From the NCBI RefSeq assembly GCF_044324785.1, contig NZ_CP172128.1: a DNA stretch of 64,000 nt; one strand, written 5' to 3'. Shown piece after piece: positions 45,473 to 64,000 of this stretch; within the stretch, counting starts at the first letter, position 1; each line of letters opens with the position of its first letter. The notes below the pieces were generated by a model. The model saw nothing but the letters and a program-made list of their open reading frames with translations. It was not told where the DNA came from and made no database searches. The position numbers and the translations under genes were made by a program. Source of the stretch: Escherichia coli. GTDB taxonomy: Bacteria > Pseudomonadota > Gammaproteobacteria > Enterobacterales > Enterobacteriaceae.

Positions 45473-45476
45473 TATT

Positions 45477-45869: not shown

Positions 45870-45873
45870 TATA

Positions 45874-47145: not shown

Positions 47146-47582
47146 CAGCGTAACTCCCGCGTCCTGTGTATCACGTGAGTGACAACACCAAAAATACAGA
47201 TGTTTTCCGGATACAGTGTGCGGAACTCCGGGCTGTCTGAAACCGGCTCCAGTGCCGGGCGTGGGCGCAACAGCAGTCGTTTGACGGTGAACTCACCGTC
47301 GATCTCAGCGATAACGATGTCCCCGTGTTGTGGTTTTTCGGCCCTGTCCACTACCAGCAGATCACCATTCTGCACGCCAGCCTGGTTCATCGATTCACCG
47401 CTGGCGCGCAGAAAGAAGGTGGCTGCAGGTCTGCTGATGCAATAGCTGTTCAGATCCAGTTCCTGCTCAGCATAATCAGTGGCAGGCGAAGGAAAACCGG
47501 CCTGGCAACGATCGGCAAACAACGGTCGCACGTAACTGTCATCGCCTGAAGGGTCAGCCGGACGGTGATAAACGGTACTCAT
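47145..47582 (-). CDS. impA: UmuD/ImpA-like self-cleaving SOS protein
   Basis: 145 aa, S24 peptidase (LexA-like) domain with Ser/Lys dyad region (ASGESM ... FTVKRL). Confidence 0.8.
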   Translation of the reverse strand: MSTVYHRPADPSGDDSYVRPLFADRCQAGFPSPATDYAEQELDLNSYCISRPAATFFLRASGESMNQAGVQNGDLLVVDRAEKPQHGDIVIAEIDGEFTVKRLLLRPRPALEPVSDSPEFRTLYPENICIFGVVTHVIHRTRELR

Positions 47583-47826
47583 GCTGCAGGCAGCCAGCTG
47601 TCGTCCTGCCAGATTTCTTCCAGCAGAGACAGGATACGTTCTTTATCCTTGTCGTTGCGGGCTCCTGTGACAGATACAGACGGGGCGCTGCCCTGGTCTA
47701 TACGCAGCCAGATTTCCGGGTAGTGTGGTTTCAGACGTTGTTCGATTTCATTCTGTAGCGCCTGAAGTGTGCCTGATTTGAGGTTTTTGTGCTCTGGCGG
47801 TCGAAAAGAATTTCAATGCGGATCAT
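47579..47826 (-). pseudogene. impC: impC-like small ORF with apparent frameshift
   Basis: ATG at 47826 encodes MIRIEILFDRQSTK then stops; a second frame continues to a stop overlapping impA start; frames join at an A/T5 homopolymer near 47783-47787. Confidence 0.45.
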
Positions 47827-47848
47827 GTTCTCATCTCCCTTTTCTATT

Positions 47849-47866
47849 GCTGTATGTATATACAGT
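47849..47866. promoter_or_regulatory. LexA (SOS) box upstream of impCAB
   Basis: GCTGTATGTATATACAGTA, perfect CTGT-N8-ACAG. Confidence 0.75.
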
Positions 47867-48219
47867 ATTCTAATAACTGAATCCACACACAGTCAAATGT
47901 CATTATTGTGACTAAAAAACGCTCAATTCTCTGAGGGTGTGGCTGTATGCCTGCTGTGGAGTGCTGTGTCCAGCTTATCCACAGCATTTTGTGCACGGTT
48001 CTGTGGACAAAATACCTGGTTACCCAGGCCGTGCCGGCACGTTAACCGGGCTGCATCCGATGCAAGTATGTCGCTGTCGCCGGCCTCCTCACCCGGTCAC
48101 GTTTCGTCGTTCCTCCTCCACGCGCTGCGGCTTCGGGGCCGCACCTGCATTCGTATGCGGTCGCCCGGTAACAGGTGCGGCACGGCCTGATGGAGGCCGC
48201 ATGTGAGAGGAGAATTCCC

Positions 48220-49146
48220 ATGCCAAACTGGTGCTCGAATCGTATGTATTTTTCTGGTGAACCGGCACAGATCGCTGAGATTAAACGACTGGCCAGTGGT
48301 GCAGTCACACCGCTTTATCGCCGCGCCACAAATGAAGGTATTCAGCTGTTTCTGGCCGGAAGTGCCGGACTTCTGCAGACCACTGAAGATGTGCGGTTTG
48401 AACCATGCCCCGGACTGACGGCTGCCGGACGTGGTGTTGTATCTCCGGAGAATATAGCGTTCACCCGCTGGCTGACACACCTGCAGAACGGTGTACTGCT
48501 GGATGAGCAAAACTGCCTGATGCTGCATGAACTCTGGCTGCAGAGCGGTACTGGACAGCGTCGCTGGGAAGGATTACCGGACGATGTCAGGGATACCATC
48601 ACCGCACTTTTCACCGCAAAAAGAGGTGACTGGTGTGGCTTCTGGAGTAACGAGGATGTATCGGTGTGGTGGAACCGTCTGTGTGACAATGTACTGCCGG
48701 AAAAAACCATGCCGTTTGACCTGCTGACGGTTCTGCCGACCCGCCTTGATGTTGAAGTGAATGGCTTCAACGGTGGTGTTCTGAACGGTGTTCCTTCTGC
48801 ATATCACTGGTATACAGAACTGTATGGTGTGAAGTGGCCTTGTGGGTATGACCTGAATATCAGCAGTCAGGGGGAAAACTTCATTCAGGTGGATTTCGAC
48901 ACGCCGTGGTGTCAGCCGGAAAGCGACGTTATTGCAGCATTAAGCCGCCGTTTCAGCTGCACGCTGGAGCACTGGTATGCCGAACAGGGCTGTGATTTCT
49001 GTGGCTGGCAGTTGTATGAGCGCGGAGAGCTTGTTGATGTGCTGTGGGGGGAACTGGAATGGTCTTCCCCGACAGATGACGATGAGCTGCCGGAAGTCAC
49101 CGGACCTGCGTGGATAGTCGACAATGTGGCGCATTATGGCGGATGA
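48220..49146 (+). CDS. hypothetical leading-region protein (Cys/Trp-rich, ~308 aa)
   Basis: long ORF with GAGGAG RBS before ATG at 48220; not recognised. Confidence 0.5.
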   Translation: MPNWCSNRMYFSGEPAQIAEIKRLASGAVTPLYRRATNEGIQLFLAGSAGLLQTTEDVRFEPCPGLTAAGRGVVSPENIAFTRWLTHLQNGVLLDEQNCLMLHELWLQSGTGQRRWEGLPDDVRDTITALFTAKRGDWCGFWSNEDVSVWWNRLCDNVLPEKTMPFDLLTVLPTRLDVEVNGFNGGVLNGVPSAYHWYTELYGVKWPCGYDLNISSQGENFIQVDFDTPWCQPESDVIAALSRRFSCTLEHWYAEQGCDFCGWQLYERGELVDVLWGELEWSSPTDDDELPEVTGPAWIVDNVAHYGG

Positions 49147-49194
49147 AGTATGACGGAGACGGGCGGGAAACCGCCCGTTTCTTTTCCGACAAAG

Positions 49195-49551
49195 GATGTC
49201 GCCGGCGGCTCCGCTTTACCCGGCCATGCGGGGCATGGCCTTGTGGGTTTTCAACTCTGTAGCCTCAGCGTCGTGTGCGGGCTGTGCCGTGCCTCCATCG
49301 TAGCCGGGCTTCTGCGGGCGGGTTGCAAGGTAAGGTGAACCGCTGCGGTCACCCGGTCCCTCCTTCCCGTCTGCCGTGATTTTCCGGTCGTTCACCCGCT
49401 CAGATTTCGCGGTCTCACCCTCCAACTCCCGTCAGCCGTGTGCGTCAGGCTGCGGCTTCCCTTGCGCCCTTGCAACCCTGCAGGCCCGGCAAAGATGGAG
49501 GCACGGCACCGCCCGGTGTCGCGGAATATGTGAACAACGGAGGAAAACATC
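49195..49551 (+). repeat. GC-rich structured leading-region repeat, type B copy 1 (Frpo/ssi-like)
   Basis: ~360 bp nearly identical to 56148-56507; ends at klcA start. Confidence 0.6.
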
Positions 49552-49977
49552 ATGCAATATGCGAAACCTGTCACTCTGAATGTTGAAGAGTGCGACCGTC
49601 TCTCCTTTCTGCCTTACCTGTTTGGCAACGATTTTCTGTATGCCGAGGCGTATGTGTACGCGCTGGCGCAAAAAATGATGCCGGAATATCAGGGAGGCTT
49701 CTGGCACTTCATCCGCCTGCCGGACGGTGGCGGTTACATGATGCCGGATGGCGACCGTTTCCACATGGTGAACGGTGCAAACTGGTTTGACCGTACCGTG
49801 AGTGCTGATGCCTGCGGCATCATTCTGACTTCCCTTGTGATTAACCGCCAGTTGTGGCTGTACCACGACAGCGGGGATGCGGGACTGACACACCTTTACC
49901 GGATGCGCGATGCGCAGTTGTGGAGCCACATCGAATTTCACCCCGAATGCAATGCGATTTACGCGGCACTGGACTGA
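49552..49977 (+). CDS. klcA: KlcA/ArdB-family antirestriction protein
   Basis: 141 aa, size and sequence character of KlcA/ArdB. Confidence 0.65.
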
Positions 49978-50023
49978 TTAACGGACGGGGCGGCGATGCC
50001 GCCCCTGTAAAGGAGACGAGAAC

Positions 50024-50443
50024 ATGTACTGTACTGTTAAAGAAATTATCCGCGAAGTGCTGGATACAGACGTGCCGGACAGTGAATGCGTTTTTGCTGT
50101 GGTGCTGACCCGTGGGGATGTACGTCACATAGCCCGGGACTGGAACCTGACAGACGATGAGCTGGAAACCGTCATGCAGCGGCTGGACGATGCCTTTGAG
50201 CATGGTGCTGATGTCAGCATTGTTCACGACGTTGTTCGTGAACTGATGGAGGAAAAGCGCGTAAACCGTCTTGTAACAGTCCCTGCGGTGCTGCTGGAAA
50301 AAGTGATGGTGATGGCTGGTAGTGAAATTTATCGCCTCCATGCTGTAGGGAGCGAGAACGGGGGCGACGGTGACGCATTTGTCAGGGAAGAACGTGAGAT
50401 TATGCGGTTGATGCGTCAGGCGCTGGACGGGGAGAACGGGTAA
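50024..50443 (+). CDS. hypothetical leading-region protein
   Basis: 139-aa ORF, acidic; not recognised. Confidence 0.45.
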   Translation: MYCTVKEIIREVLDTDVPDSECVFAVVLTRGDVRHIARDWNLTDDELETVMQRLDDAFEHGADVSIVHDVVRELMEEKRVNRLVTVPAVLLEKVMVMAGSEIYRLHAVGSENGGDGDAFVREEREIMRLMRQALDGENG

Positions 50444-50634
50444 TGAATATCAGCACAGAAACCCGCGAAATTCTGCGCAATTACAAAGCCGTGATTAATG
50501 CACGACGTCGTGAGATGGGGCAGAAACCGCTCACCACCGCGCAGATTGTTGATGAAATCTGCGATTTTGTGGCAAATCAGCAGGCTGTTTTCCTCGGCGG
50601 TCACTACATCCTTCAGGGCAGCAGAAACAGGTGA
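50443..50634 (+). CDS. hypothetical small protein
   Basis: 63-aa ORF with start overlapping upstream stop. Confidence 0.35.
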   Translation: MNISTETREILRNYKAVINARRREMGQKPLTTAQIVDEICDFVANQQAVFLGGHYILQGSRNR

Positions 50635-50835
50635 TACAGGGCAGGCGGTGGAGGCCGCCTGTCAGCCCGCGCGAAAACCCCTGGCAGGCTGACGCCTGCC
50701 GGAAATGCGGGGTGCAGCGCCTGCGGCGCTGCCGGCCCGGCTTTCCGGTCAGAAGATAGTGTATGGCTGTATGCCAGGAACAGGTGCGATATTCCGTGAC
50801 ACTGTCACTGTTTCTGGCTGTCTTTTATTGCGCCC

Positions 50836-51403
50836 ACTTCGGCTCCCGGCTGCCTGGCGGCATCCGGTCGTCAGGCCCGACTACGACAGGCAGCTGCTTG
50901 CGCACCCGCCAGTCTCCGCCGAACCCGCTGGCGCGGTTTCGGGCTGTCGCTACGGTCCGATGCGTGAAAAACCGGGCTTGCAGCGACCGTTCCGGTCGCG
51001 CCGCCTCTGTCGCGCCGTGACCTGCGCTCCCTGCACACCTGACGGTGTGTGAGGAAACTGCGCCTGATGGCGCAGCAGTCTTCCCTCCTGCCGCCACCTC
51101 TGCGGCCTGTTTCCCGCTGTGGACTTTCCGGGGGGCAGACGTAACCCCCTCCCGTTCCATCTGTCCAGGGTGAGATGCACCGGCCACAAAATTTTTAGCC
51201 ATGAACCCGGCTAAAAATTTTGCGTCCGCCCCCGGACAGCTGTCCCGTGAGGCGGTAAACGGGCCCCCATCGGAAAGGTCCACTGCGGGGAGAAACCCCT
51301 GTGAAGTGGACGGCAGGAGGAGCTTTCGCTCCTCTGAAGGGGCACATGAACGTCCCGTCGCCGGTATCCGGTTTATCTCACATCTTTCAGTCAGGAGGTT
51401 CTT
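50836..51403 (+). repeat. GC-rich structured leading-region repeat, type A copy 1 (Frpo/ssi-like)
   Basis: homologous to 57192-57739 and 60527-60897; ends at ssb start. Confidence 0.6.
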
Positions 51404-51931
51404 ATGAGTGCACGTGGTATCAACAAGGTCATCCTCGTCGGGCGTCTGGGCAATGATCCGGAAGTCCGTTACATCCCCAACGGGGGCGCAGTGGCAAACC
51501 TGCAGGTGGCCACGTCAGAAAGCTGGCGCGACAAACAGACGGGGGAGATGCGGGAGCAGACGGAATGGCACCGCGTGGTGCTGTTCGGCAAGCTCGCGGA
51601 AGTGGCAGGTGAATATCTGCGCAAGGGCGCGCAGGTCTACATCGAGGGGCAACTCCGTACCCGTAGCTGGGAAGATAACGGTATCACCCGTTACGTCACT
51701 GAAATTCTTGTTAAGACCACGGGCACCATGCAGATGCTGGGGAGTGCACCACAGCAGAACGCTCAGGCGCAACCGAAGCCTCAGCAGAATGGGCAGCCAC
51801 AGAGTGCTGACGCGACGAAAAAAGGTGGCGCGAAAACGAAAGGCCGTGGACGTAAGGCCGCGCAGCCCGAGTCTCAGCCGCAACCGCCGGAGGGGGAGGA
51901 TTACGGGTTTTCAGACGATATCCCGTTCTGA
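51404..51931 (+). CDS. ssb: plasmid single-stranded DNA-binding protein
   Basis: OB-fold N-terminus [23 protein letters not shown].., Gly/Gln-rich linker, acidic tail DDIPF. Confidence 0.9.
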
Positions 51932-51949
51932 CTGGCCTGACTGTGATAA

Positions 51950-52222
<273 letters not shown>

Positions 52223-52285
52223 GAGAGGTGCCGGACGGGAACGCGTCCGGCAGACATACAACCATCCCGGTCAAAGGAGAAATAT

Positions 52286-54244
52286 ATGTCAGTTACAGAG
52301 TCTAAGACAAAAACGGAGCGTAAATCCAGCCGTAAACCTGCAAAAACGCAGGAAACTGCACTGTCTGCCCTGCTGGCGCAGACGGAGGAAGTGAGCGTGC
52401 CGCTGGATTCACTGATTAAATCACCGCTGAATGTGCGCACGGTGCCGTATTCTGCGGAGTCCGTCAGTGAACTGGCTGATTCCATTAAGGGAGTCGGCCT
52501 GCTGCAGAATCTGGTTGTTCATGCCCTGCCAGGTGACCGTTACGGTGTCGCCGCAGGTGGTCGCCGACTGGCAGCACTCAACATGCTGGCAGAGCGTGAC
52601 ATCATTCAGGCTGACTGGCCTGTCCGCGTGAAAATTATTCCGCAGGAGCTGGCGACGGCTGCATCGATGACCGAGAACGGTCATCGTCGGGATATGCACC
52701 CTGCCGAACAGATTGCCGGATTCCGCGCAATGGCGCAGGAAGGCAAAACACCTGCGCAAATCGGTGATTTGCTGGGCTATTCACCCCGCCATGTCCAGCG
52801 AATGCTGAAACTGGCTGACCTTGCGCCTGTCATCCTCGATGCGCTGGCAGAAGACCGCATCACCACCGAACACTGTCAGGCGCTGGCGCTGGAGAACGAC
52901 ACCGCGCGTCAGGTGCAGGTGTTTGAAGCCGCCTGCCAGTCAGGATGGGGTGGAAAACCGGATGTGCGGGTTATCCGCAACCTGATTACGGAAAGTGAAG
53001 TGGCGGTGAAGGACAACACTAAATTTCGCTTTGTGGGGGCTGATGCTTTCTCGCCTGACGAACTGCGCACCGATTTGTTCAGCGATGACGGGGACGGTTA
53101 TGTCGACCGCGTGGCGCTCGATGCCGCCCTGCTGGAAAAACTCCAGGTTGTTGCAGAGTCCCTTCGGGAAGCAGAAGGCTGGGAATGGTGCGCCGGGCGC
53201 ATGGAGCCAGTCGGTGAGTGCCGTGAGGATGCCGGAACATACCGCTGTCTGCCGGAGCCGGAAGCGGTGCTGACGGAGGCGGAAGAAGAACGCCTGAACG
53301 AACTGATGACGCGTTACGACGCGCTGGAAAACCAGTGTGAGGAATCCGACCTGCTGGAAGCAGAAATGAAGCTGATGCGCTGCATGGCGAAGGTCAGAGC
53401 GTGGACGCCGGAGATACGTGCCGGAAGCGGTGTGGTGGTGTCCTGGCGTTATGGCAACGTATGTGTCCAGCGTGGTGTGCAGTTGCGCAGTGAAGATGAC
53501 GCGACTGACGACGCTGACCGCACGGAACAGGTGCAGGAGAAAGCGTCAGTGGAGGAAATCAGTCTGCCACTGCTGACGAAAATGTCTTCCGAACGCACGC
53601 TGGCAGTCCAGGCGGCACTGATGCAGCAACCGGACAAATCCCTGACACTGCTGGCATGGACGCTCTGCCTGAATGTGTTTGGCAGCGGAGCGTACAGTAA
53701 ACCAGCACAAATCAGCCTGGAATGTAAACATTATTCGCTGACCAGCGATGCGCCGTCAGGGAAGGAAGGTGCCGCATTCATGGCGCTGATGGCAGAAAAA
53801 GCCCGTCTTGCGGCCCTGTTACCGGAGGGATGGTCACGGGACATGACGACATTCCTTTCACTCAGTCAGGAGGTGCTGTTATCCCTGCTCAGTTTCTGCA
53901 CCGCGTGCAGCATCCACGGCGTTCAGACCCGCGAGTGTGGTCACACGTCACGCAGCCCGCTGGACACGCTGGAGAGCGCCATCGGTTTTCACATGCGCGA
54001 CTGGTGGCAGCCGACAAAAGCAAACTTCTTCGGACACCTGAAAAAGCCGCAGATTATCGCAGCCCTGAATGAGGCAGGACTGTCCGGTGCCGCACGGGAC
54101 GCGGAGAAGATGAAGAAAGGCGATGCGGCTGAACATGCAGAGTTCCATATGAAAGACAACCGCTGGGTGCCTGGCTGGATGTGTGCACCACGTCCACAGA
54201 CGGATACCACTGAACGCACTGATAACCTGGCTGATGCCGCCTGA
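52286..54244 (+). CDS. ParB-like nuclease domain protein
   Basis: 652 aa; N-terminal ParB/Srx-like segment (..LLQNLVVHALPGDRYGVAAGGRRLAAL..). Confidence 0.7.
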   Translation: MSVTESKTKTERKSSRKPAKTQETALSALLAQTEEVSVPLDSLIKSPLNVRTVPYSAESVSELADSIKGVGLLQNLVVHALPGDRYGVAAGGRRLAALNMLAERDIIQADWPVRVKIIPQELATAASMTENGHRRDMHPAEQIAGFRAMAQEGKTPAQIGDLLGYSPRHVQRMLKLADLAPVILDALAEDRITTEHCQALALENDTARQVQVFEAACQSGWGGKPDVRVIRNLITESEVAVKDNTKFRFVGADAFSPDELRTDLFSDDGDGYVDRVALDAALLEKLQVVAESLREAEGWEWCAGRMEPVGECREDAGTYRCLPEPEAVLTEAEEERLNELMTRYDALENQCEESDLLEAEMKLMRCMAKVRAWTPEIRAGSGVVVSWRYGNVCVQRGVQLRSEDDATDDADRTEQVQEKASVEEISLPLLTKMSSERTLAVQAALMQQPDKSLTLLAWTLCLNVFGSGAYSKPAQISLECKHYSLTSDAPSGKEGAAFMALMAEKARLAALLPEGWSRDMTTFLSLSQEVLLSLLSFCTACSIHGVQTRECGHTSRSPLDTLESAIGFHMRDWWQPTKANFFGHLKKPQIIAALNEAGLSGAARDAEKMKKGDAAEHAEFHMKDNRWVPGWMCAPRPQTDTTERTDNLADAA

Positions 54245-54298
54245 TGAACAACCACACCGCCCCGCCGGAGACGGGGCGGCAGCAAGGGAGATACCGTG

Positions 54299-54733
54299 AT
54301 GAAAACTGAACTGACCCTGAATGTCCTGCAGACCATGAACGCACAGGAATATGAAGATATCCGTGCTGCGGGAAGCGATATGCGCCGTAATCTCACTCAC
54401 GAGGTGATGCGTAAAGTGGACGCACCGGCTAACTGGATGATGAATGGCGAGTATGGCAGTGAGTTCGGGGGCTTTTTCCCCGTCCAGGTTCGTTTCACGC
54501 CAGCCCACGAACGTTTCCACCTGGCATTATGTTCGCCGGGAGACGTCTCTCAACTCTGGATGCTGGTTCTGGTGAATGGTGGTGGACAGCCTTTCGCCGT
54601 CGTTCAGGTGCAACATATCTTCACGCCTGTCGCGATCAGTCACACGCTGGCGCTCGCCGCGACACTTGATGCGCAGGGATACAGTGTTAACGACATCATT
54701 CATATTTTGATGGCAGAAGGAGGTCAGGCATGA
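54299..54733 (+). CDS. psiB: PsiB, plasmid SOS-inhibition protein B
   Basis: [27 protein letters not shown].. matches PsiB. Confidence 0.85.
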
Positions 54734-55449
54734 GCGCACGTTCACGGGCACTGATCCCCCTCAGCGCAGAACAACAGGCCGCCATGCAGGCTGTGGCTGT
54801 CACCGAACAACGTCGTCGTCAGGGACGCACACTTTCAGCATGGCCTTATGCCAGCGCTTTCTTTCGCTGCCTGAATGGCAGTCGCCGGATTTCGCTGACC
54901 GATCTCCGCTTTTTTGCCCCTGCGCTGACGAAGGAGGAATTTCATGGCAACCGTCTCCTGTGGCTGGCTGCCGTGGATAAACTGATTGAAAGTTTTGGTG
55001 AAGTCTGTGTTCTTCCCCTGCCATCCGATGCGGGGCATCGTCTGTTCCCGTCTGTTCCTTTTCGTGAAGGTGAGCGTCGTCGTCAGAAAACCACGCTGAC
55101 AGAGCAGAAATACAGCCGCCAGCGGGAACGTGAGGCAGAACGACGGGAACTGGAATACCAGACATGTTTTGCTCAGGCGCAGATTGACCTTGCGTTTCAT
55201 ACTCCCGCCACGGTCGGAAGCTGGTTGTCCCGCTGGTCTGGTGTTGTTGAGGAGCATGATCTGGAAACGATTTTCTGGGGGTGGTGCGGGCGTTTTCCGT
55301 CACTGTCATCATTTGACCGGTTTTTCTGGCAGGAGGGACCACTCTGGCGGCTGATTTTTGAAGCCGGTGAGGCCGGTCGTGGTGCACCGGTACAGGTACG
55401 TGCACTTGAGCAGTGGATGATCCCGAACAAGCTGGAGAACGTAATATGA
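54730..55449 (+). CDS. psiA: PsiA
   Basis: 239-aa ORF overlapping psiB stop, PsiA-like. Confidence 0.75.
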
Positions 55450-56042
55450 TGAAATCAGACGAAAAATATCAGGTTCCCGTGTGGATGCGACCTCTGTTGC
55501 CGTTGCTCTGCAACACCGGGGGGAACGATCCGGAAGAACTGCTGAATGATACAGCAACCACTGTCAGTGCGAATGTTGTCCGTTATGTACTGATAGTTGC
55601 TGTGCGGTCGCAGGTTGATCTGCTGCAGATTCTGTACAGGAAAGGGCTGTTGCGCACAGAGATACCAGGTGGCTTTTCACCGGAAGAAGCGCAGGCACTC
55701 CTGGATAATCTGGTGCGCAGCCATATCAGCAGGGCGCTGTCGGGTGAGCGAATGGCAGCCCGTGACAGAAATGCCGATCTGGCCTGGATTCGACAGCAAC
55801 TGGTCGATGCCGCCTGGTTTGTCCGTGCCACACTGGAGGCGCATGGGATGGGCGTCGGAAATGAGAGTCCCCCTGCTCAGCCGGAGACAATGCCGGACAT
55901 ACAGACACGGGAACTGGTGATGTTGATCAAGCGACTGGCATCATCGCTGAAAGCGGTGAAACCGGACAGTTGTGTGGTGCGTGAAGCGCAGGACTGGCTG
56001 CGCGACAGAAAACTTGTGAGCATCACGGATGTTCTTCGGTGA
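55446..56042 (+). CDS. hypothetical leading-region protein
   Basis: ~198-aa ORF overlapping psiA stop. Confidence 0.45.
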   Translation: MMKSDEKYQVPVWMRPLLPLLCNTGGNDPEELLNDTATTVSANVVRYVLIVAVRSQVDLLQILYRKGLLRTEIPGGFSPEEAQALLDNLVRSHISRALSGERMAARDRNADLAWIRQQLVDAAWFVRATLEAHGMGVGNESPPAQPETMPDIQTRELVMLIKRLASSLKAVKPDSCVVREAQDWLRDRKLVSITDVLR

Positions 56043-56147
56043 ACCAGTGGAGGTATGCTTGAGGGGCAGGGACATGCCGGTCATGATCGTTTCGTTCCAG
56101 GGGTGGTCTGGAGATCATGCGGTGTGCTCCCTGCTCTCGCCGGAATA

Positions 56148-56507
56148 AGGACGTCGCCGGCGGCTCCGCTTTTACCCGGCCATGCGGGGCATGGCCTTGT
56201 GGGTTTTCAGGTATGAAGCCATCGTGTCGTGTGCGGGCTGTGCCGTGCCTCCATCGTAGCCGGGCTTCTGCGGGCGGGATGCAAAGGTACGCTTCGCCGC
56301 TGCGGTCACCCGGTCCCTCCTTCCCGTCTGCCGTGATTTTCCGGTCGTTCACCCGCTCAGATTTCGCGGTCTCACCCTCCAACTCCCGTCAGCCGTGCGC
56401 GTCGGGCTGCGGCTTTCCTTGCGCCCTTGCATCCCTGCAGGCCCGGCAAGGATGGAGGCACGGCACCGCCCGGTGCCGCAGAACATGTGACTATGGAGGA
56501 TTCGGGA
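56148..56507 (+). repeat. GC-rich structured leading-region repeat, type B copy 2 (Frpo/ssi-like)
   Basis: nearly identical to 49195-49551; ends at ardA start. Confidence 0.6.
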
Positions 56508-57008
56508 ATGTCTGTTGTTGCACCTGCTGTATACGTTGGAACCTGGCACAAATACAACTGCGGAAGCATCGCCGGACGCTGGTTTGACCTGACCACGTTT
56601 GATGATGAACGCGATTTTTTCGCCGCCTGCCGTGCCCTTCACCAGGATGAAACCGATCCGGAACTGATGTTTCAGGATTATGAGGGATTCCCGGGGAATA
56701 TGGCCTCTGAATGTCATATCAACTGGGCCTGGGTTGAAGGCTTCCGCCGGGCGCGGGATGAAGGCTGCGAAGAGGCTTATCGTCTCTGGGTGGATGATAC
56801 CGGTGAGACGGATTTTGACACCTTCCGCGATGCCTGGTGGGGCGAGGCTGACAGTGAGGAGGCTTTTGCGGTTGAGTTCGCCAGTGATACCGGCCTGCTG
56901 GCTGGCGTGCCGGAGACGGTGGCGCTCTATTTTGACTATGAGGCGTATGCGCGGGATTTATTCCTGGACTCCTTCACCTTTATTGACGGTCATGTGTTCC
57001 GTCGGTGA
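56508..57008 (+). CDS. ardA: ArdA antirestriction protein (DNA mimic)
   Basis: 166 aa from MSVVAPAVYVGTWHKYNCGSIAGRWFDL.., highly acidic. Confidence 0.85.
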   Translation: MSVVAPAVYVGTWHKYNCGSIAGRWFDLTTFDDERDFFAACRALHQDETDPELMFQDYEGFPGNMASECHINWAWVEGFRRARDEGCEEAYRLWVDDTGETDFDTFRDAWWGEADSEEAFAVEFASDTGLLAGVPETVALYFDYEAYARDLFLDSFTFIDGHVFRR

Positions 57009-57191
57009 TTTACTCCCCCGCTCCGGCGGGGGTATGGCCTGCCGGGCCGCCGGAAAACCCTGGCAGGCTTACGCCTGCCTGAAATGCAGGAGGGCCGCGC
57101 CTGCGGCGCTGCCCTTCCTGCCCGTCATGGTGTGAGGCATTTTTCTGTTATGTCGTTTCTGTTGTTCTGATTTCCGGAGGCGGGGACACCC

Positions 57192-57739
57192 TTCGGCTCC
57201 CGGCTGCCTGGCGGCATCCGGTCGTCAGGCCCGACTCCGACAGGCAGCTGCTGGCGCACCCGCCAGTCTCCGCCGAACCCGCTGGCGCGGTTTCGGGCTG
57301 CCGCTACGGTCCGATGTCTGAAAAACCAGGCCTGCAGCGACCGTTCCGGTCGCGCCGCCCCTGTCGCGCCGGAAACGGCGCTCCCTGCACACCTGACGGT
57401 GTGTAAGGCCACTGCGCCTGATGGCGCAGTTGTCTGCCCTTCCGCCGCCACCCCTGCGGCCTGTTTCCCGCTGTGGACTTTCCGGGGGCTGAAGCGGCCA
57501 CAACACGTTTCAGCCGTCCAGGGGAGAGATGTACCAGCCACAAAACTTTTTGCCGCAGGCGTCAAAAACTTTTGCGTCTGCCCCCGGACAACTGCCCCGT
57601 GCCGTGGCAGTCGCTGCCCCATCGGAAAGGTCCACTGCGGGGAGAAACCCCGAAGAAGTGGACGGCAGAAGGGGCTTTCGCCCCTCCGGGGAATAACCGG
57701 TCGGCCCGGCGACCTGATTCAGCAGAAGGAGACTTTTTC
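57192..57739 (+). repeat. GC-rich structured leading-region repeat, type A copy 2 (Frpo/ssi-like)
   Basis: homologous to 50836-51403 and 60527-60897. Confidence 0.6.
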
Positions 57740-58174
57740 ATGACAGTCAGCAGCACGATTTCCGTTTTTTGCCGCGACGGGGTGTTCCGTACCGTTTACT
57801 GCCACCTGCACGGTGAGCCGGCCCGGAACGGTCGCATCCTGCATACCCACTATGCCACCGGTCAGCAGGCCGAAGCCCTAGTTGAACACGGTGATATCCG
57901 TTGCCTCGGTCCCCGTTGCGACAAACCCGCCGGGCATACGCTTCAGAACCCGGTGGACGGTGTGACGGCTTATTACGGACGTGACAGTGGTTTCCGGATG
58001 GACAGTGAAGCGCGTGAGTACCGCTCTTTCAGGGAGGCTATTGCCACTGAAAGCACAGAAGAGGTGCGCTTCCATTATGTGTTCATCGACGGCTACTGGA
58101 AGGTGATGTACCGCACGCCGGAAGGCTGGAAGATGAAAGCGCTCGCGCTGGCACTGCGTCGCTGTCCGGAATGA
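57740..58174 (+). CDS. hypothetical leading-region protein (144 aa)
   Basis: AAGGAG RBS 8 bp before ATG at 57740; Cys/His-containing; not recognised. Confidence 0.5.
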   Translation: MTVSSTISVFCRDGVFRTVYCHLHGEPARNGRILHTHYATGQQAEALVEHGDIRCLGPRCDKPAGHTLQNPVDGVTAYYGRDSGFRMDSEAREYRSFREAIATESTEEVRFHYVFIDGYWKVMYRTPEGWKMKALALALRRCPE

Positions 58175-58266
58175 AAAAAAGCAGGGCGATAACCCCTGCC
58201 TTTCTCCGCCGGCGCTTCCCCGTACGGAAGTCCGGCATCTCATTCACTAACTATGGAGATTATGCC

Positions 58267-58533
58267 ATGAGACCATCAATTATCTTCGCAACCGCCGAGT
58301 ATGTAAAGCGTCTGCGTGAAGAGTGCCGGCGGGAGAACAAACCCCTGCACCGCCATACCCGCTTCAGACGCCAGGAACTGGCACCGGATGAGATTAACCC
58401 GGACGTCCTGGCGATGGGCGGTCATATCGCCAGACGCTGCAGTGAGCGGAAGCGGGTGCGTATCCCCGCCATGAAAGTCAGCGAATGGGGCCACCTGCTC
58501 CGCGCGCTTGAAATTGAACGGGTCTGCCACTGA
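58267..58533 (+). CDS. hypothetical small basic protein
   Basis: 88-aa ORF; weak support. Confidence 0.3.
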   Translation: MRPSIIFATAEYVKRLREECRRENKPLHRHTRFRRQELAPDEINPDVLAMGGHIARRCSERKRVRIPAMKVSEWGHLLRALEIERVCH

Positions 58534-58597
58534 TTACCCCTTGCCGTCTGCCTGTGCAGGCGGCAGGATACGTTCAGACATCTCACCAGGAGGAACC

Positions 58598-59560
58598 GTG
58601 AGTAAGAAGAAAAACACCACAACGCCCACGCCGCATGATGCTGCGTTCCGGTCGTTCCTGGCGAATCCCGACGTCGCCAGAGATTTTCTGGAACTGCATC
58701 TTCCGGCGGAGTACCGGCAGTTGTGCGACCTGTCCACGCTGAAGCTGGAACCCGCCACCTTTGTTGAGCCGGACCTGCATCAGTACGCCAGCGATATCCT
58801 CTGGAGTGTGAAAACCACCGGGGGTGAAGACGGCTATGTTTATACGCTCATCGAGCACCAGAGCACCGAAAATCTGTACATGCCTTTCCGCATGATACGT
58901 TACAGTGTGGCGGCGATGCAGAGACATCTGGAGCAGCACAAAACATTGCCACTGGTGATTCCGGTGCTGTTCTATCATGGTGAGCGCAGCCCGTACCCGT
59001 ACAGCATGAACTGGCTGGACTGTTTTGAGGATCCGGCGCTTGCGGCTAAAATATACACAAAGCCGTTTCCGCTGGTTGATATCACTGTCGTTGATGACAA
59101 TGAAATCATGAACCATCGCCGGATGGCCGCACTGACGCTGCTGATGAAGCATATCCGCCATCGTGACATGATGGAGCTGCTGGACAAACTCCCGCAGGTC
59201 ATGGTGGAAATTTCAGACGAGCAGGTGCGTGTTCTGATTCATTACATCGTTAACGCAGGGGACTCTGTATCACCGGAATTTATGCGGGCGCTGGCTGAGC
59301 GTCTGCCGCAGCATGAGGATAAACTGATGACTATTGCCGAACGTCTTGAGCAGCAAGGAATACAGAAAGGAATACAGCAGGGAATACAGCAGGGAATACA
59401 GCAGGGAATACAGCAGGGAATACAGCAGGGAATACAGAAAGGCCGCATGGAGGAGAAGCAGGATATTGCGCGTCAGCTTCAGAAAACGGGAATGCCATCT
59501 GCACAAATCTGTCAGATCACCGGACTTTCCGAAGCTGAACTGAAGAACATCACTCACTGA
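58598..59560 (+). CDS. Rpn-family (YhgA-like) recombination-promoting nuclease / putative transposase
   Basis: GTG start after AGGAGG RBS; N-terminus ..TPHDAAFRSFLANPDVARDFLELHLP.. and ..YTLIEHQS.. typical of Rpn/YhgA PD-(D/E)XK proteins; C-terminal (GIQQ)x7 repeat. Confidence 0.7.
   Translation: MSKKKNTTTPTPHDAAFRSFLANPDVARDFLELHLPAEYRQLCDLSTLKLEPATFVEPDLHQYASDILWSVKTTGGEDGYVYTLIEHQSTENLYMPFRMIRYSVAAMQRHLEQHKTLPLVIPVLFYHGERSPYPYSMNWLDCFEDPALAAKIYTKPFPLVDITVVDDNEIMNHRRMAALTLLMKHIRHRDMMELLDKLPQVMVEISDEQVRVLIHYIVNAGDSVSPEFMRALAERLPQHEDKLMTIAERLEQQGIQKGIQQGIQQGIQQGIQQGIQQGIQKGRMEEKQDIARQLQKTGMPSAQICQITGLSEAELKNITH
59357..59440 (+). repeat. in-frame 12-bp tandem repeat x7 (GGAATACAGCAG) encoding (GIQQ)n inside rpn-like gene
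   Basis: perfect tandem copies visible directly. Confidence 0.85.
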
Positions 59561-59571
59561 TGAGAACCACA

Positions 59572-59598
59572 AAGCCCGGCAAAATGCCGGGTTTTTTT
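59572..59598 (+). terminator. rho-independent terminator-like hairpin
   Basis: AAAGCCCGGCAAAATGCCGGGTTTTTTTG. Confidence 0.6.
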
Positions 59599-59622
59599 GT
59601 CAGCAGGAGCAGAGCAAACAGC

Positions 59623-59784
59623 ATGACGATTGCAGAACGTCTTGAGCAAAAAGGTCGCCAGGAAGGAGCGCTTGAAAAAGCCCTGGCCATTGCGTGCCAG
59701 CTTCAGAAAATGGGGATGACGCCGGAGCAGATTAAGCAGGCTACCGGACTGTCCGAAGCTGAACTGAAAAAAATCATTCACTGA
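59623..59784 (+). CDS. stand-alone Rpn C-terminal-domain paralog (53 aa)
   Basis: MTIAERLEQKG..GLSEAELKKIIH parallels the C-terminus of the upstream Rpn-like protein. Confidence 0.45.
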   Translation: MTIAERLEQKGRQEGALEKALAIACQLQKMGMTPEQIKQATGLSEAELKKIIH

Positions 59785-59794
59785 TGAGAGCATC

Positions 59795-59822
59795 ACAGCC
59801 CGGCAGAATGCCGGGCTTTTTT
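59795..59822 (+). terminator. rho-independent terminator-like hairpin
   Basis: CAGCCCGGCAGAATGCCGGGCTTTTTTG. Confidence 0.6.
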
Positions 59823-59842
59823 GCCAGCAGGGGCAGAGCAGT

Positions 59843-60037
59843 ATGACTATTGCAGAACGTCTTATACAGAAAGGTTTCGACGAGGGTTTTAAACAAGGTT
59901 TTAAACAAGGGGCTCTTGAAGTGGCGCGGGAAATAGCCTGCCGGCTGCGGGATATAGGCTGGCCGCCGGAACGGATTCAGGAGGTCACGGGACTTTCCGG
60001 TGAAGAACTGAAAAAGCTGTTTCCTGATGAGCAGTAG
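59843..60037 (+). CDS. stand-alone Rpn C-terminal-domain paralog (64 aa)
   Basis: MTIAERLIQKG..GLSGEELKKLF parallels the same domain. Confidence 0.45.
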   Translation: MTIAERLIQKGFDEGFKQGFKQGALEVAREIACRLRDIGWPPERIQEVTGLSGEELKKLFPDEQ

Positions 60038-60068
60038 CCTGGCATTCAGCCAGGCTGTGAATCACCGC

Positions 60069-60320
60069 TCACACATCCTCTGCCGTTTCCCCCAGTTCAT
60101 TTTCCAGTCGCCTGATGATATCTGCCTTACGCATCCCCTGCATGTGAGGCAGCAGGTCACGGACTGAAAGAGCCTGGGTGGTCCTCCAGACGGTGACGTC
60201 CACCTGTTCCGCATTTTCCCAGGCGTGCCATGTTCTCTGCGTCACGCCAAATTCTCTGGCCGCTTTTTCGCGTGACCAGAGCATGCTTTTTCGCCAGATT
60301 CGCAGTTCCCAGCCGGTCAT
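60069..60320 (-). CDS. small HTH-type DNA-binding protein, putative
   Basis: 83-aa ORF; inverted repeat AAAGTGAAAAAACTTCACTTT just upstream of its start. Confidence 0.4.
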   Translation of the reverse strand: MTGWELRIWRKSMLWSREKAAREFGVTQRTWHAWENAEQVDVTVWRTTQALSVRDLLPHMQGMRKADIIRRLENELGETAEDV

Positions 60321-60526
60321 AAAACACCTTTGAAAAAGTGAAAAAACTTCACTTTATTTTATCATCATAATCATCAAATCAGCGCGATAAATAAGTGTAA
60401 AAAAATGAAGAAATTTCACTTTTTTTTGCTTGTAAATGTCGTGCGGTTTTCTCTGTTTTCACCTGTGCGGGAGTGGTGTGCCAGTGACCACCACATGCCA
60501 TTGTTGTGCCGTCGTTTTTCTTCAGT

Positions 60527-60897
60527 CGCGCCGTATGCGGCGCTCCCTGCACACCTTACGGTGTGTAAGGCCACTGCGCCTGATGGCGCAGCTGTCTCTG
60601 CCTGTCTGCCGCCGCACTGCGGCCTGTTCTCCGCAGACGGACTTTCCGGGGGTACATACATGACCACATCCCGTTTCAGTCGTCCAGGGGAGAGATGTAC
60701 CAGCCACAAAACTTTTTGCCGCAGGCGTCAAAAACTTTTGCGTCTGCCCCCGGACAACTGCCCCGTGACGTGGTGAGCGTCCCCCGTCGGAAAGGTCCAC
60801 TGCGGGGAAATCCCCGAAGACCCGGACGGCAGAAGGAGCTTCGCTCCTCCGGGAAATGACCTGGCTGACCCGGCAGTCGTGACGATGAGGAGACAAT
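60527..60897 (+). repeat. GC-rich structured leading-region repeat, type A copy 3 (Frpo/ssi-like)
   Basis: homologous to the 3' ~370 bp of the other type A copies. Confidence 0.6.
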
Positions 60898-60900
60898 GTG

Positions 60901-61749
60901 ATGAATCAGACTTTACCCACTGCTGACCTGAATACTGCCGGCACGACAGATGTTATTCCGTCTGTGGCTATCGACCGCATCATCGCGCAGCGTAACGAAG
61001 GTATTGCACTGTTCATGCAGGCGATGGAATGCCTGGCGACAGCGCGCAAGATTCTGCTCGATGCGTCAGGTGATATTTTTCTTTACGGGTTTGAAGACTG
61101 CGTGACTGATTCCGTTCGTCGCATAGATAAACCGGAAGAAGCGAAAAGGAATATCACCCGTCTTGCCGACCGGAAAATCTGGGAGCGCCTGATGACAGAT
61201 ACGGGCATGTACACCTTCATGAGTTCATGCCAGCGTGATGAGTGGAACAGCCAGCTGATGAGCGACACCTGTCCTGAAATCACCCTGGACAATGTACTGG
61301 CAACATTCCGCCATCTGAATGCCTGCAAGATGCAGACATTTGAACAGGGACTGATTGATGTCTACCGGAAATTGTCATGGGATTACAGAACCAATAATCC
61401 CTGCCGTCTGGGTAAGAAAATCATTATTGAAAACCTGCTGTACCGCTGGAGTAACGGGCGTGTGACGCTGGACTGCAGCGGACGGGAGGCACTGGATGAC
61501 CTGGTACGTCCGTTTTATCTGCTGGAGGGGCGCAACGTTCCTGACTTCAGGAACAGCATCGGGGCGCAGTATGGTGAATTTCTCGGGAACGGCGACAATG
61601 TCGGTAAGCTGTTAGAAGGGGAATATTTTACGGTGCGTGGCTACCAGAAAGGGACCGTACACATTGTCTTTAATCGTTCTGACCTTGTTGAAAAACTGAA
61701 TGATATTATTGCACGGCATTATCCAGGTGTATTGCCGCCACGAGTCTGA
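60901..61749 (+). CDS. hypothetical leading-region protein (282 aa)
   Basis: GAGGAG RBS; long ORF ending at a strong terminator; not recognised. Confidence 0.5.
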   Translation: MNQTLPTADLNTAGTTDVIPSVAIDRIIAQRNEGIALFMQAMECLATARKILLDASGDIFLYGFEDCVTDSVRRIDKPEEAKRNITRLADRKIWERLMTDTGMYTFMSSCQRDEWNSQLMSDTCPEITLDNVLATFRHLNACKMQTFEQGLIDVYRKLSWDYRTNNPCRLGKKIIIENLLYRWSNGRVTLDCSGREALDDLVRPFYLLEGRNVPDFRNSIGAQYGEFLGNGDNVGKLLEGEYFTVRGYQKGTVHIVFNRSDLVEKLNDIIARHYPGVLPPRV

Positions 61750-61758
61750 TTAAACAGA

Positions 61759-61790
61759 AAAGCCCTGGTATTTATGCCGGGGCTTTTTTT
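61759..61790 (+). terminator. rho-independent terminator
   Basis: AAAAGCCCTGGTATTTATGCCGGGGCTTTTTTTTC. Confidence 0.65.
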
Positions 61791-61834
61791 TCTGTAATCA
61801 TCATAATCTCAGAACACGATGTGACATTGTCACA

Positions 61835-62176
61835 TCAATTGTTGTTCATATCGATGCCATCTTTCCTGCCTGAATCTGTCTTTTTAGGTGCTGTTTTAGA
61901 GGAAGAACGGCGGGATGGTTTTTTCGATTCTGCTTCCCGAATAATGTCACGAAGTGCCTTCTCTCCTACTTCATACCCTGCATTTTTGAGCGTGTCACGA
62001 ACATCTGCCAGTGTATAACCCTTTGTCCTTATCAGGACAATAATGTCATCACGAATGGCATCAAGAAAATCACGCAATGTTTTCCGTTGAGCGGTGAGAT
62101 CTGGCAATTCCGATAAAGCAGCTTTTGCCAGCTGGATGTCATCATCTGAGTAAAATTTTTTAGAAGCCATTGGCAC
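61835..62176 (-). CDS. hypothetical protein, divergent from nikA
   Basis: 113-aa ORF with Lys/Ser-rich basic tail. Confidence 0.4.
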   Translation of the reverse strand: MPMASKKFYSDDDIQLAKAALSELPDLTAQRKTLRDFLDAIRDDIIVLIRTKGYTLADVRDTLKNAGYEVGEKALRDIIREAESKKPSRRSSSKTAPKKTDSGRKDGIDMNNN

Positions 62177-62289
62177 TTTCTCTCCGTTTCATGTTGAAGT
62201 CTGATTTTATCATCAAAAACTGACTCCTGGCAGGGCTGCGCCCTGCCTCTGCCGTCTGCATAAGACTATGATGCACAAAAATAACAGGC

Positions 62290-62390
62290 TATAATGGCCT
62301 GAAAAACGGGACAGGATGTGTAATCGTATAACCGCGCACACACGGCTATACGATTACCACCTGGTCAGGGCTTAGCCCCGACACCCCGGT
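62290..62390 (+). promoter_or_regulatory. oriT region (putative nic site and NikA binding repeats) with nikA promoter
   Basis: inverted repeats CGTATAACC..GGCTATACG and GGGCTTAGCCC directly upstream of nikA, the expected oriT position in IncI-type transfer modules. Confidence 0.5.
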
Positions 62391-62402
62391 AAGGAGCAGA
62401 CC

Positions 62403-62735
62403 ATGAGTGAGAAGAAAACCCGAAGTGGCAGTGAGAAACGGCAAAAGAATGTCCTCATTGCTGTTCGTTTTTCACCAGAAGAGGCTGAGATTGTTAAAGA
62501 AAAGGCAGAAAAAAACGGACTGACAGTTTCAACTCTGATAAGAAAAACTGTGCTGGGAAAACAGATAAATGCCCGCATTGATGAAGATTTTTTGAAAGAG
62601 CTGATGCGTCTTGGTCGCCTGCAGAAGCATCTGTTTGTGGAAGGAAAACGCACGGGAGATAAAGAGTATGCAGAGGTTCTCGTTGCTATTACAGAGCTTG
62701 CTAATACTCTGCGAAGAGATTTAATGGGACGCTGA
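62403..62735 (+). CDS. nikA: NikA relaxosome accessory protein (RHH)
   Basis: 110-aa ORF (size of IncI1 NikA) immediately upstream of the relaxase. Confidence 0.75.
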   Translation: MSEKKTRSGSEKRQKNVLIAVRFSPEEAEIVKEKAEKNGLTVSTLIRKTVLGKQINARIDEDFLKELMRLGRLQKHLFVEGKRTGDKEYAEVLVAITELANTLRRDLMGR

Positions 62736-62746
62736 GATAATCGCTG

Positions 62747-64000
62747 ATGAATGCCATCATTCCGAAAAAAAGACGCGACGGAAAGTCTTCTTTTGAAGAC
62801 CTGATTGCGTACACCTCAGTGCGGGATGATGTGCCGGAAGATGAACTCAGGCCAGACACGGAAATGAAAGCTGAGATTCCGCACCGGAACCGCTTCAGAC
62901 GTCTTGTTGATTATGCAACACGTCTGCGTAATGAAAAATTTGTTTCCCTGATTGATGTGATGAAAGACGGCAGTCAGTGGGTGAATTTCTATGGTGTGAC
63001 CTGCTTTCATAACTGTTTGTCTCTTGAATCTGCGGCTGAAGAAATGCAGAAAGCAGCAGACCTTGCTCATTTTTCCAAAGATGATACAGATCCTGTTTTT
63101 CACTATATTCTCTCCTGGCCTGCGCACGAAAGTCCGCGTTCTGAGCAGCTTTTTGACTGTGTGCGTCACACCCTGAAATCCCTTGAGCTGTCAAAACATC
63201 AGTATGTGGCAGCCGTTCATACAGACACGGATAACCTGCATGTACATGTTGCAGTGAATCGTGTCCACCCTGAAACCGGCTATATCAATTGCCTTCCGTG
63301 GAGCCAGGAAAAACTCAGCCGTGCATGTCGTGAACTTGAACTTAAGCACGGATTCGCGCCTGATAATGGCTGCTTTGTGCATGCACCCGGCAACCGTATT
63401 GTGCGCAAAACAGCGCTGGTACGTGAGCGCCGTAATGCCTGGCGACGCGGGAAAAAGCAGACGTTCAGGGAATATATTGCGCAGATGTCGATTGCCGGTC
63501 TGCGTGAAGAGCCCGCACAGGACTGGTTATCTTTGCATAAACGGCTGGCCAGTGATGGTCTGTATATCACGATGCAGGAAGGGGAACTGGTGGTGAAGGA
63601 TGGCTGGGACAGAGCGCGGGAAGGTGTTGCACTCAGTTCGTTCGGACCGTCATGGACAGCTGAAAAACTGGGGCGGAAACTGGGGGAATATCAGCCTGTA
63701 CCGACAGATATTTTCAGTCAGGTGGGGGCACCCGGTCGTTATGATCCGGAAGCCATTAACGTGGATATCCGGCCGGAAAAAGTGGCAGAAACGGAGAGTC
63801 TGAAACAGTACGCCTGTCGTCACTTTGCTGAACGCTTACCGAAAATGGCGCGAAATGGTGAACTGAAAAGTTGCCTGGCTGTACACCGTACTCTGGCAGA
63901 GGCGGGATTATGGATGGGGATTCAGCACGGGCATCTGGTACTGCATGATGGATTTGAACCACAGCAGACGCCGGTTCGTGCAGACAGTATATGGCCGTTG
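62747..64000 (+). CDS. nikB: NikB MOBP relaxase, 5' part (runs off window end)
   Basis: open frame from ATG 62747 to window end; relaxase motifs VFHYILSW and HTDTDNLHVHVAVNRV. Confidence 0.8.
   Translation, partial: MNAIIPKKRRDGKSSFEDLIAYTSVRDDVPEDELRPDTEMKAEIPHRNRFRRLVDYATRLRNEKFVSLIDVMKDGSQWVNFYGVTCFHNCLSLESAAEEMQKAADLAHFSKDDTDPVFHYILSWPAHESPRSEQLFDCVRHTLKSLELSKHQYVAAVHTDTDNLHVHVAVNRVHPETGYINCLPWSQEKLSRACRELELKHGFAPDNGCFVHAPGNRIVRKTALVRERRNAWRRGKKQTFREYIAQMSIAGLREEPAQDWLSLHKRLASDGLYITMQEGELVVKDGWDRAREGVALSSFGPSWTAEKLGRKLGEYQPVPTDIFSQVGAPGRYDPEAINVDIRPEKVAETESLKQYACRHFAERLPKMARNGELKSCLAVHRTLAEAGLWMGIQHGHLVLHDGFEPQQTPVRADSIWPL

Follow-up and report, generated by a model that had tools for sequence, protein, structure and literature searches.

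The 144-aa product of the gene studied here, ORF144, is very likely an early-expressed effector of a plasmid leading region. The best overall explanation, to which we give a probability of about 0.45, is an establishment effector expressed early from the ssi2 promoter in front of the gene. Early expression of ORF144 is well supported by the sequence of the window (the whole stretch of 64,000 nucleotides analysed) and by what has been published on an ortholog of 97% identity. That the gene exists, how its operon is laid out and which promoter precedes it were known from earlier publications. New here are the finding that the PndC (toxin-antitoxin) label is wrong, the placement of ORF144 in a very large family of phages and plasmids, a confidently predicted fold without a solved relative together with its set of conserved residues, an allele replacement confined to the slot of the gene, and the correct mapping of published transposon (TraDIS) and toxicity data. 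Feature coordinates are collected in Table 1.

Table 1. Positions of ORF144 and associated features in the window.
Feature	Coordinates	Strand	Basis or remark
Class 1 sister copy (ssi3 position)	50672..51370	-	in front of ssb
Class 1 (Frpo/ssi2-type) ssDNA promoter element	57051..57710	- (transferred, functional)	repeat, fold, ssi2 homology
Core hairpin of the ORF144 element	57378-57697	-	about 320 nt
Ribosome-binding site AAGGAG	57726..57731	+	8 nt 5' of the ORF144 ATG; direct sequence reading
ORF144 (ygcA slot; RefSeq WP_084818460.1, labelled 'PndC'; PHROG 1987/23089 family)	57740..58174	+	sequence, RefSeq, profile matches
GC-rich stem-loop (GCAGGG...CCCTGC)	58181..58199	+	directly 3' of the ORF144 stop codon
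ORF88	58267..58533	+	next gene after ORF144; ortholog of pMS7163B_00810
Rpn-family gene (PD-(D/E)XK, Transposase_31)	58598..59560	+	same gene string as ORF144; 12-nt tandem repeat 59339-59466
Shorter class 1 sister copy (ssi1 position)	60515..60880	-	ahead of the DUF4942 gene
oriT nick region CACATCCTG|T	62311..62320	-	sequence read on the - strand

Leading-region setting and the single-strand promoter

Positions 57100-58300 were 100% identical to the E. coli plasmid pLH10-b-1-A (IncK2/Z, MOBP, MPF_I). The window represents the leading region of a plasmid of the I-complex (IncK2/Z). Upstream of ~33 kb it is not collinear with NZ_CP100531.1, and the coordinates of that record were trusted for the leading region only. 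An IS3-family element (orfA/orfB) lies at 31954-33166 (+), at a position where pLH10-b-1-A lacks it, so that collinearity with that record is lost upstream of the leading region; the element contains an ordinary full-length ALIL frameshift pseudoknot (Rfam, 32234-32350, 107.8 bits).

The + strand genes run in the order KlcA-type antirestriction gene, DUF1380, ssb (51404-51931), DUF905, a 652-aa ParB-like gene, psiB, psiA, a 198-aa ORF and ardA (56508-57008), the last lying directly upstream of ORF144. They continue with ORF88, the Rpn-family gene and two short Rpn-tail ORFs, beyond which stand an HTH gene on the - strand, the DUF4942 gene, the oriT gap, nikA/mobA and the relaxase gene. ORF144 thus shares its island with KlcA, PsiB/PsiA, SSB, ArdA and DUF4942. 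The DUF4942 gene (60898-61749, +), which follows the ssi1-type copy, gave a whole-length match to a PHROG annotated as DNA methyltransferase, without a separate methyltransferase domain call.

We take the sequence at 62311-62320 to be the nick region of IncI1 (R64-type) plasmids, and the exact nick position is likewise our assumption. Since this sequence reads on the - strand, the - strand is the transferred strand (T-strand); the nick falls at ~62.3 kb, and the leading region extends below it. It follows from the orientation of the nick region that the T-strand is the template for ORF144 and for all + strand leading-region genes. ORF144 lies 4.1-4.6 kb from the nick.

The original prediction held that ORF144 has a strong ribosome-binding site and shares its upstream element with ssb, the repeat ending at the start codon. 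The ATG, the TGA and the AAGGAG motif were all found as described. The upstream repeat spans ~660 nt and is a direct repeat of the element before ssb, with 93% identity between 57191-57488 and 50837-51134 and with blocks 57051-57090 and 57560-57686 also shared, which bears out the common architecture. Its end had been placed too far downstream: the similarity fades at ~57710, ~30 nt short of the start codon. A shorter copy of the repeat occurs at 60525-60773, ahead of the DUF4942 gene.

When the - strand of 57340-57725 was folded as single-stranded DNA, one long imperfect hairpin of -123.7 kcal/mol resulted, compared with -83.3 ± 4.0 kcal/mol for shuffles of the region (z = -10.2 for the - strand); the + strand folded less well (-104.9 kcal/mol). 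The class 1 element is present in three copies per plasmid in three plasmids, and the consensus of the nine copies comprised 100 predicted pairs, ten of which were kept through changes on both sides. All nine copies carry a constant 10-11-nt bulge on the non-template arm of the hairpin, and this bulge, with TACATC, TATATC or TGCATC, is a candidate -10 element; no sigma-70 -35/-10 boxes could be assigned with confidence within the hairpin. The ORF144 element was 95% identical to the pESBL-EA11 element in the ssi2 position. By repeat, predicted fold and homology, the element upstream of ORF144 is the known ssi2/Frpo (class 1) single-strand promoter.

A second repeat family (49215-49533 and 56171-56490, 92-94% identical) stands directly ahead of the KlcA-type gene (49551-49976) and of ardA. 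In this placement it matches the 'class 2' ssDNA promoters proposed for pESBL (PMC12672017).

In the pESBL study (PMC12672017, Wen et al. 2025), three hairpins were equated with ssi1-3 of ColIb-P9 and Frpo of F ("class 1"), and two further hairpins, before klcA and ardA, were designated "class 2". Start sites were mapped by 5' RACE for six leading-region operons of pESBL, ssi1-3 included, and operon induction reached up to ~500-fold at 15 min post-mating, a figure that applies to operons and not to single genes. Three ssi-driven operons have also been described on two clinical IncI1 plasmids, with "PndC" among the products (PMC10104558). The ORF144 slot of pESBL-EA11 holds the 144-aa O3K_RS25985 ("hypothetical protein"), which is 97% identical to ORF144. 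The expectation that genes so placed are expressed first is therefore borne out by the 95% identity to pESBL ssi2 together with the published early induction of the pESBL operons. ORF144 resembles the ssi/Frpo-driven early genes of IncI1 and F plasmids (ardA, psiB, ssb, M.EcoGIX) in its island, its class 1 promoter, the use of the T-strand as template and its strong ribosome-binding site, and of such systems, the pESBL operons have documented early and transient expression. Unlike ArdA, KlcA/ArdB, PsiB, SSB and the methyltransferases, to which it is unrelated, ORF144 has a sequence and a predicted fold of its own.

On the sequence, and on the published work with the 97%-identical ortholog, ORF144 is the first cistron behind the ssi2 (class 1, Frpo-type) promoter of this I-complex (IncK2/Z) leading region. 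During conjugation the - strand would enter the recipient from the oriT nick, bringing in ORF144 within the first ~4.6 kb. The ~320-nt upstream hairpin would fold in the single strand and be used by host RNA polymerase, so that transcription of ORF144 would precede synthesis of the complementary strand and cease when the DNA becomes double-stranded.

The ORF144 gene and its protein family

ORF144 runs from ATG 57740 to TGA 58172-58174 and encodes 144 aa. In the six-frame ORF list the frame reaches back to GTG 57473, which gives 233 aa. Because the methionine at the ATG position was invariant in 68 of 68 aligned family members and the RefSeq annotation also gives 144 aa, we placed the start at ATG 57740 and not at GTG 57473; the 233-aa extension is mere read-through of the hairpin element. 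The GC-rich stem-loop behind the stop codon looks like a putative weak or bidirectional terminator.

ORF144 matched PHROG 1987 and PHROG 23089 over residues 1-126 and 1-122 (E = 3.9e-19 and 4e-19, respectively), and both PHROGs are annotated as function unknown. A phmmer search against 1.84 billion cluster representatives returned 1,934 family representatives at E <= 1e-3, with 256 at E <= 1e-10, mostly of 120-160 aa, and dN/dS against diverged alleles was 0.17-0.20. On the PHROG match, the number of representatives and the dN/dS values, ORF144 is judged a real coding gene, beyond chance. It is also under purifying selection, which holds for comparisons of alleles whose dS is saturated. Profile searching of 5.8 billion proteins gave 2,953 matches, all of them unnamed, and with a 10-sequence subset of the alignment the family was found on at least 582 IMG/VR contigs. 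Relatives occur in the jumbo phages GAP32, Serratia BF, Erwinia, Yersinia and Pectobacterium CBB, and also in T4-like cyanophages (S-PM2, S-SKS1), Vibrio nt-1 and Caulobacter phages.

The family consensus reads MxTRS..VYCHWDGY..NG..L..HY...LGD.S.L...P.GH(S/T)F..P..G.TV.YGRDRGE...EY.Y.F..G.W. In the 68-member alignment, M1, L34, G51, H66, Y113 and W120 were invariant, and Y20, H22, G25, Y38, Y79, R81 and D82 were at least 96% conserved; H22 and R81 reached 99% and D82 97%, at a mean identity of ~32%. The polar residues H22, H66, R81 and D82 and several aromatic residues are thus kept across bacteria, archaea and phages at ~30% identity. ORF144 itself differs from the consensus at seven positions that are otherwise well conserved (T3V, R4S, D24H, Y26E, S54R, R83S and E85F), and these differences could mean altered or lost activity in the plasmid allele. 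The protein is near neutral (pI 7.7; 18 acidic D+E and 19 basic K+R residues), as against a family median pI of 5.2. Its relation to the phage proteins of PHROG 1987/23089 (for example GAP32_348 and S-PM2 'T4-like GC 66') is true full-length sequence membership, with the motifs YCH.(D/H)G, GH(S/T), YGRD, Y..F and W in common. The plasmid clade differs from them in the seven changed positions and in its near-neutral charge, and the phage members do not stand behind ssDNA promoters.

AlphaFold gave a confident model of ORF144 (pLDDT 96.6, pTM 0.90), and no match to the predicted fold was found among solved structures (PDB). The structure-prediction check proposed at the outset thus produced a model of high confidence that lacks a solved counterpart, and the proposed homology search turned up no housekeeping function. 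On the model, the product is a soluble alpha/beta protein of 144 aa, and the rest of its very large family comes mainly from early and accessory gene strings of phages. Pfam, NCBIfam and PADLOC scans of the protein yielded nothing usable (PADLOC, 0 families), and Pfam on the 68 family members gave noise only. No homology to known anti-defence, anti-restriction or SOS-inhibitor proteins was detected, and neither KlcA/ArdB, PsiB, ArdC nor other solved leading-region proteins resembled ORF144 in sequence or fold. The protein, which the original prediction did not recognise, already has names (ygcA, and 'PndC' in RefSeq), and the ssi elements are published.

Three structural readings of the protein were rejected. 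With a DNA mimic of the ArdA/Ocr type ORF144 has in common the adjacent ardA, early expression and the anti-defence island; it is not acidic (pI 7.7), matched neither Pfam ArdA nor any such fold in the PDB, and has conserved His, Arg and Asp instead of a charge pattern, by which the reading is ruled out. The H-x-D...H...R spacing is like that of 2-oxoglutarate/Fe(II) oxygenases, and no jelly-roll or cupin was among the structural matches. An ADP-ribosyltransferase R-S-E reading was likewise discarded, no such fold being among those matches.

Distribution, allele replacement and downstream genes

A tblastn search of PLSDB found ORF144 in 2,016 plasmids, 1,950 of them at 95-99% identity, carried by Escherichia, Salmonella, Shigella and Klebsiella. 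R64-style IncI1 records name the gene ygcA, and it is included in the IncK2 core genome list. In three assemblies (L003-L005, positions 8001-8432) the ORF144 slot holds a homolog of 51-53% identity (P0054), and the proteins flanking it are 92-99% identical to the ORF144 neighbours. The divergent stretch of DNA begins at the start codon and ends ~12 codons short of the stop, the sequence on either side being 96-100% identical, and dS was 2.2 inside the swapped gene compared with 0.04-0.15 in the flanks. Fast evolution in situ was rejected on these dS values; instead, recombination in the conserved flanks has put an old, diverged homolog in place of the gene. The P0054-type allele was absent from the PLSDB matches and represents a rare lineage. 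A Salmonella contig carries a homolog of 43% identity beside two ArdC-type genes and the CbtA toxin. Two deletion derivatives (the P0050 and P0051 group of proteins) were also found, one with DUF1380 fused to ORF144 residues 5-56 on ~150 contigs and the other with ArdA fused to ORF144 residues 100-144. These natural fusions show recurrent large deletions across the leading region.

ORF88, the gene that follows, encodes a basic 88-aa protein with no Pfam, NCBIfam, PHROG or PADLOC match. By its R64-style names it may belong to the largest leading-region family (YdaB/YdfB/YgdA) of PMC11541004. In the TraDIS study of the I-complex plasmid pMS7163B (PMC10286972), the ortholog of ORF144 is pMS7163B_00820, c(73636..74070), and insertions in it had a log2FC of +1.30 after TOP10-to-J53 conjugation. 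They were slightly enriched, not depleted, and the gene is therefore not required for that transfer. Gene 810 of the same plasmid, c(73277..73543), caused a severe growth defect on overexpression, and one transposon orientation upstream of it was counter-selected (PMC10286972). This toxicity is not a property of ORF144, as the supplementary table places 810 at ORF88 and 820 at ORF144.

In the same TraDIS table (PMC10286972), insertions in pMS7163B_00780, 00790 and 00800 were enriched ~7-9-fold post-conjugation (log2FC 2.8-3.2). These correspond to the Rpn gene and two small neighbours (window ~58.6-60.0 kb), and the enrichment is not discussed in the main text of that paper. The 12-nt tandem repeat at the end of the Rpn gene encodes a repeated QGIQ motif. 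After this gene, two stand-alone ORFs (59560-59784 and 59843-60037) each repeat the Rpn C-terminal tail (MTIAERL...) and lie within ~150-nt direct repeats at 59465-59616 and 59689-59840. Rpn toxins have antitoxins in the form of C-terminal Rpn fragments, so an array of orphan tails in a leading region could be directed against the Rpn proteins of a recipient.

The 'PndC' name and the possible roles of ORF144

RefSeq calls the ORF144 product "post-segregation killing protein PndC", and UniProt does likewise. According to this name ORF144 would be a component (the leader/mok-like frame) of pnd, a hok/sok-type post-segregational killing system. All that speaks for it is the inherited database name, repeated in PMC10104558 and in Supplementary Table 1 of PMC11541004, and ORF144 shares nothing else with PndC. 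No NCBIfam or Pfam model backs the name. No hok/sok-type RNA was matched by Rfam in 44000-64000 at E <= 0.1 or across the whole window at gathering score, so that an antisense RNA is missing, and the six-frame ORF list contained no Hok-like ORF overlapping or following ORF144. Locus and size differ as well, and ORF144 is globular. Hok/Gef genes do exist elsewhere, at 79824-79976 in pESBL and at 51872-52024 in pMS7163B (the latter listed as 'pnd'), in both cases on the far side of the transfer genes relative to the ORF144 slot. The oldest bearer of the name that we encountered, UniProt C1J8S7, has 251 aa, its translation running through the hairpin. ORF144 is not PndC, and for practical purposes the reading is refuted.

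The name has spread to surveys. Family 23 in Supplementary Table 1 of PMC11541004 comprises 2,203 ORFs in T-strand orientation at a median position of 7 from oriT, and by size it ranks 23rd among the 100 largest leading-region families. The ORF144 family is very probably this family, because ORF144 is at position 7 counting from oriT and NCBI uses the family's name for the ORF144 protein. It has thus been counted as a toxin-antitoxin part, through an unsupported name, in the 2024 survey (PMC11541004) and in RefSeq. The correction moves a large family from "explained" to "unknown".

The main rival to an establishment effector directed at the host is a factor in DNA metabolism that, in the manner of SSB and PsiB, would process, protect or replicate incoming ssDNA or influence recombination and repair. 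This is unlikely, and it draws on ORF144 sharing an island with ssb, psiB/psiA and the ParB-like gene and on the recurrent neighbours of the family in phage loci. We grouped 80 IMG/VR viral loci into 49 independent groups by neighbour clustering. The commonest neighbour was the P-loop protein of phrog_1250, directly downstream in 11 of the 49 groups; a RecA/DnaB-like ATPase was directly upstream in seven and an ATP-dependent DNA ligase occurred in six. A DUF4942-containing protein was nearby at two of the 80 loci. Against a DNA-metabolism role, no neighbour reached a majority of the 49 groups. Among longer family members scanned for fused domains, one carried a WYL_2 domain and one a gp32-like segment, which would fit the same role, although the gp32 fusion is possibly a gene-calling artefact. 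No DNA-binding or nuclease fold was recognised in ORF144, and its ortholog was dispensable for laboratory conjugation.

The remaining alternatives are less likely. ORF144 could be the antitoxin, chaperone or regulator partner of a toxic ORF88, of Rpn or of both, in a three-gene module. ORF144 (at 82-85% aa identity), ORF88 (56-57%) and Rpn (74-75%) are adjacent on diverged backbones as well, and the ORF88 ortholog is the gene with the severe overexpression defect. The module is nevertheless improbable: none of the 80 viral loci had an ORF88, Rpn or ArdA homolog nearby, which for ORF88 and Rpn means that the family works without them, and in the allele swap only ORF144 is exchanged, next to an ORF88 that keeps 95% identity. 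The insertion-orientation bias upstream of 810 (ardA panel) also speaks against it: transcription reading through from that site should express 820 along with 810, yet it is counter-selected all the same. Just as improbable is that ORF144 is dispensable cargo kept by linkage, with no role in transfer or establishment. Consistent with cargo are the absence of a conjugation defect in TraDIS and the truncated or fused derivatives in nature, one of them on ~150 contigs. Set against these are purifying selection (dN/dS ~0.2, even with saturated dS), the presence of the gene on ~2,000 plasmids, mostly at 95-99% identity, and its first position behind a dedicated early promoter, which is kept in pESBL, pMS7163B and this plasmid.

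For the establishment effector that we prefer speak, besides placement and constraint, the island with ArdA directly upstream, the 43% homolog beside ArdC-type genes, the abundance on plasmids, the allele replacement confined to the slot and the phage contexts. In contigs of phages and mobile elements, the genes of distant relatives sit in strings of small ORFs on the same strand, one with Lar, VRR-NUC and a DNA methylase, one with RadC and one with NADAR and PNKP; the GAP32 relative is a few genes from NMN adenylyltransferase and PnuC. Against it stand the TraDIS enrichment, the natural deletion derivatives, the seven departures from the consensus, the lack of a match to known anti-defence proteins or solved structures and the weakness of the associations at phage loci. 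The product may be a small enzyme or a ligand-binding effector whose working surface would be formed by His22, His66, Arg81 and Asp82 together with the conserved aromatic residues. Its target would be common to many hosts, for instance a nucleic acid, a molecule resembling a nucleotide or a protein that is conserved universally. Conservation of H22, H66, R81, D82 and the aromatics across bacteria, archaea and phages favours a putative catalytic or ligand site over a host-specific protein mimic; as a mechanism for ORF144, a catalytic site or ligand pocket is nonetheless doubtful. ORF144 would help the incoming element to establish, most likely through weakening of a defence or stress response of the host, and would not be needed for DNA transfer itself. 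An anti-defence role as such is a tentative proposal and somewhat less likely than not. The small phage anti-defence enzymes and sponges Acb1 and Tad1/Tad2 serve as a guess at what ORF144 may work like, being small, early, shared between mobile elements, deeply conserved in polar and aromatic residues and aimed at targets common to many hosts. No sequence or structural similarity between them and ORF144 was detected, and we do not claim membership. It is a rather remote prospect that the ORF144 family constitutes a new class of counter-defence or host-manipulating enzymes, with a fold unseen in the PDB and shared by phages and conjugative plasmids. If this is true, the family acts at the very start of infection or transfer, and the two diverged alleles in the same slot reflect different target specificities.

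I-complex plasmids (IncI1, IncK, IncB/O/Z) rank among the main carriers of ESBL genes in humans and poultry, and ORF144, present on ~2,000 sequenced plasmids, is among the first genes expressed in a new host. The breadth of the family in phages, the confident fold without a solved relative and the conserved His, Arg and Asp residues make ORF144 a defined target for work on the establishment of plasmids and phages.
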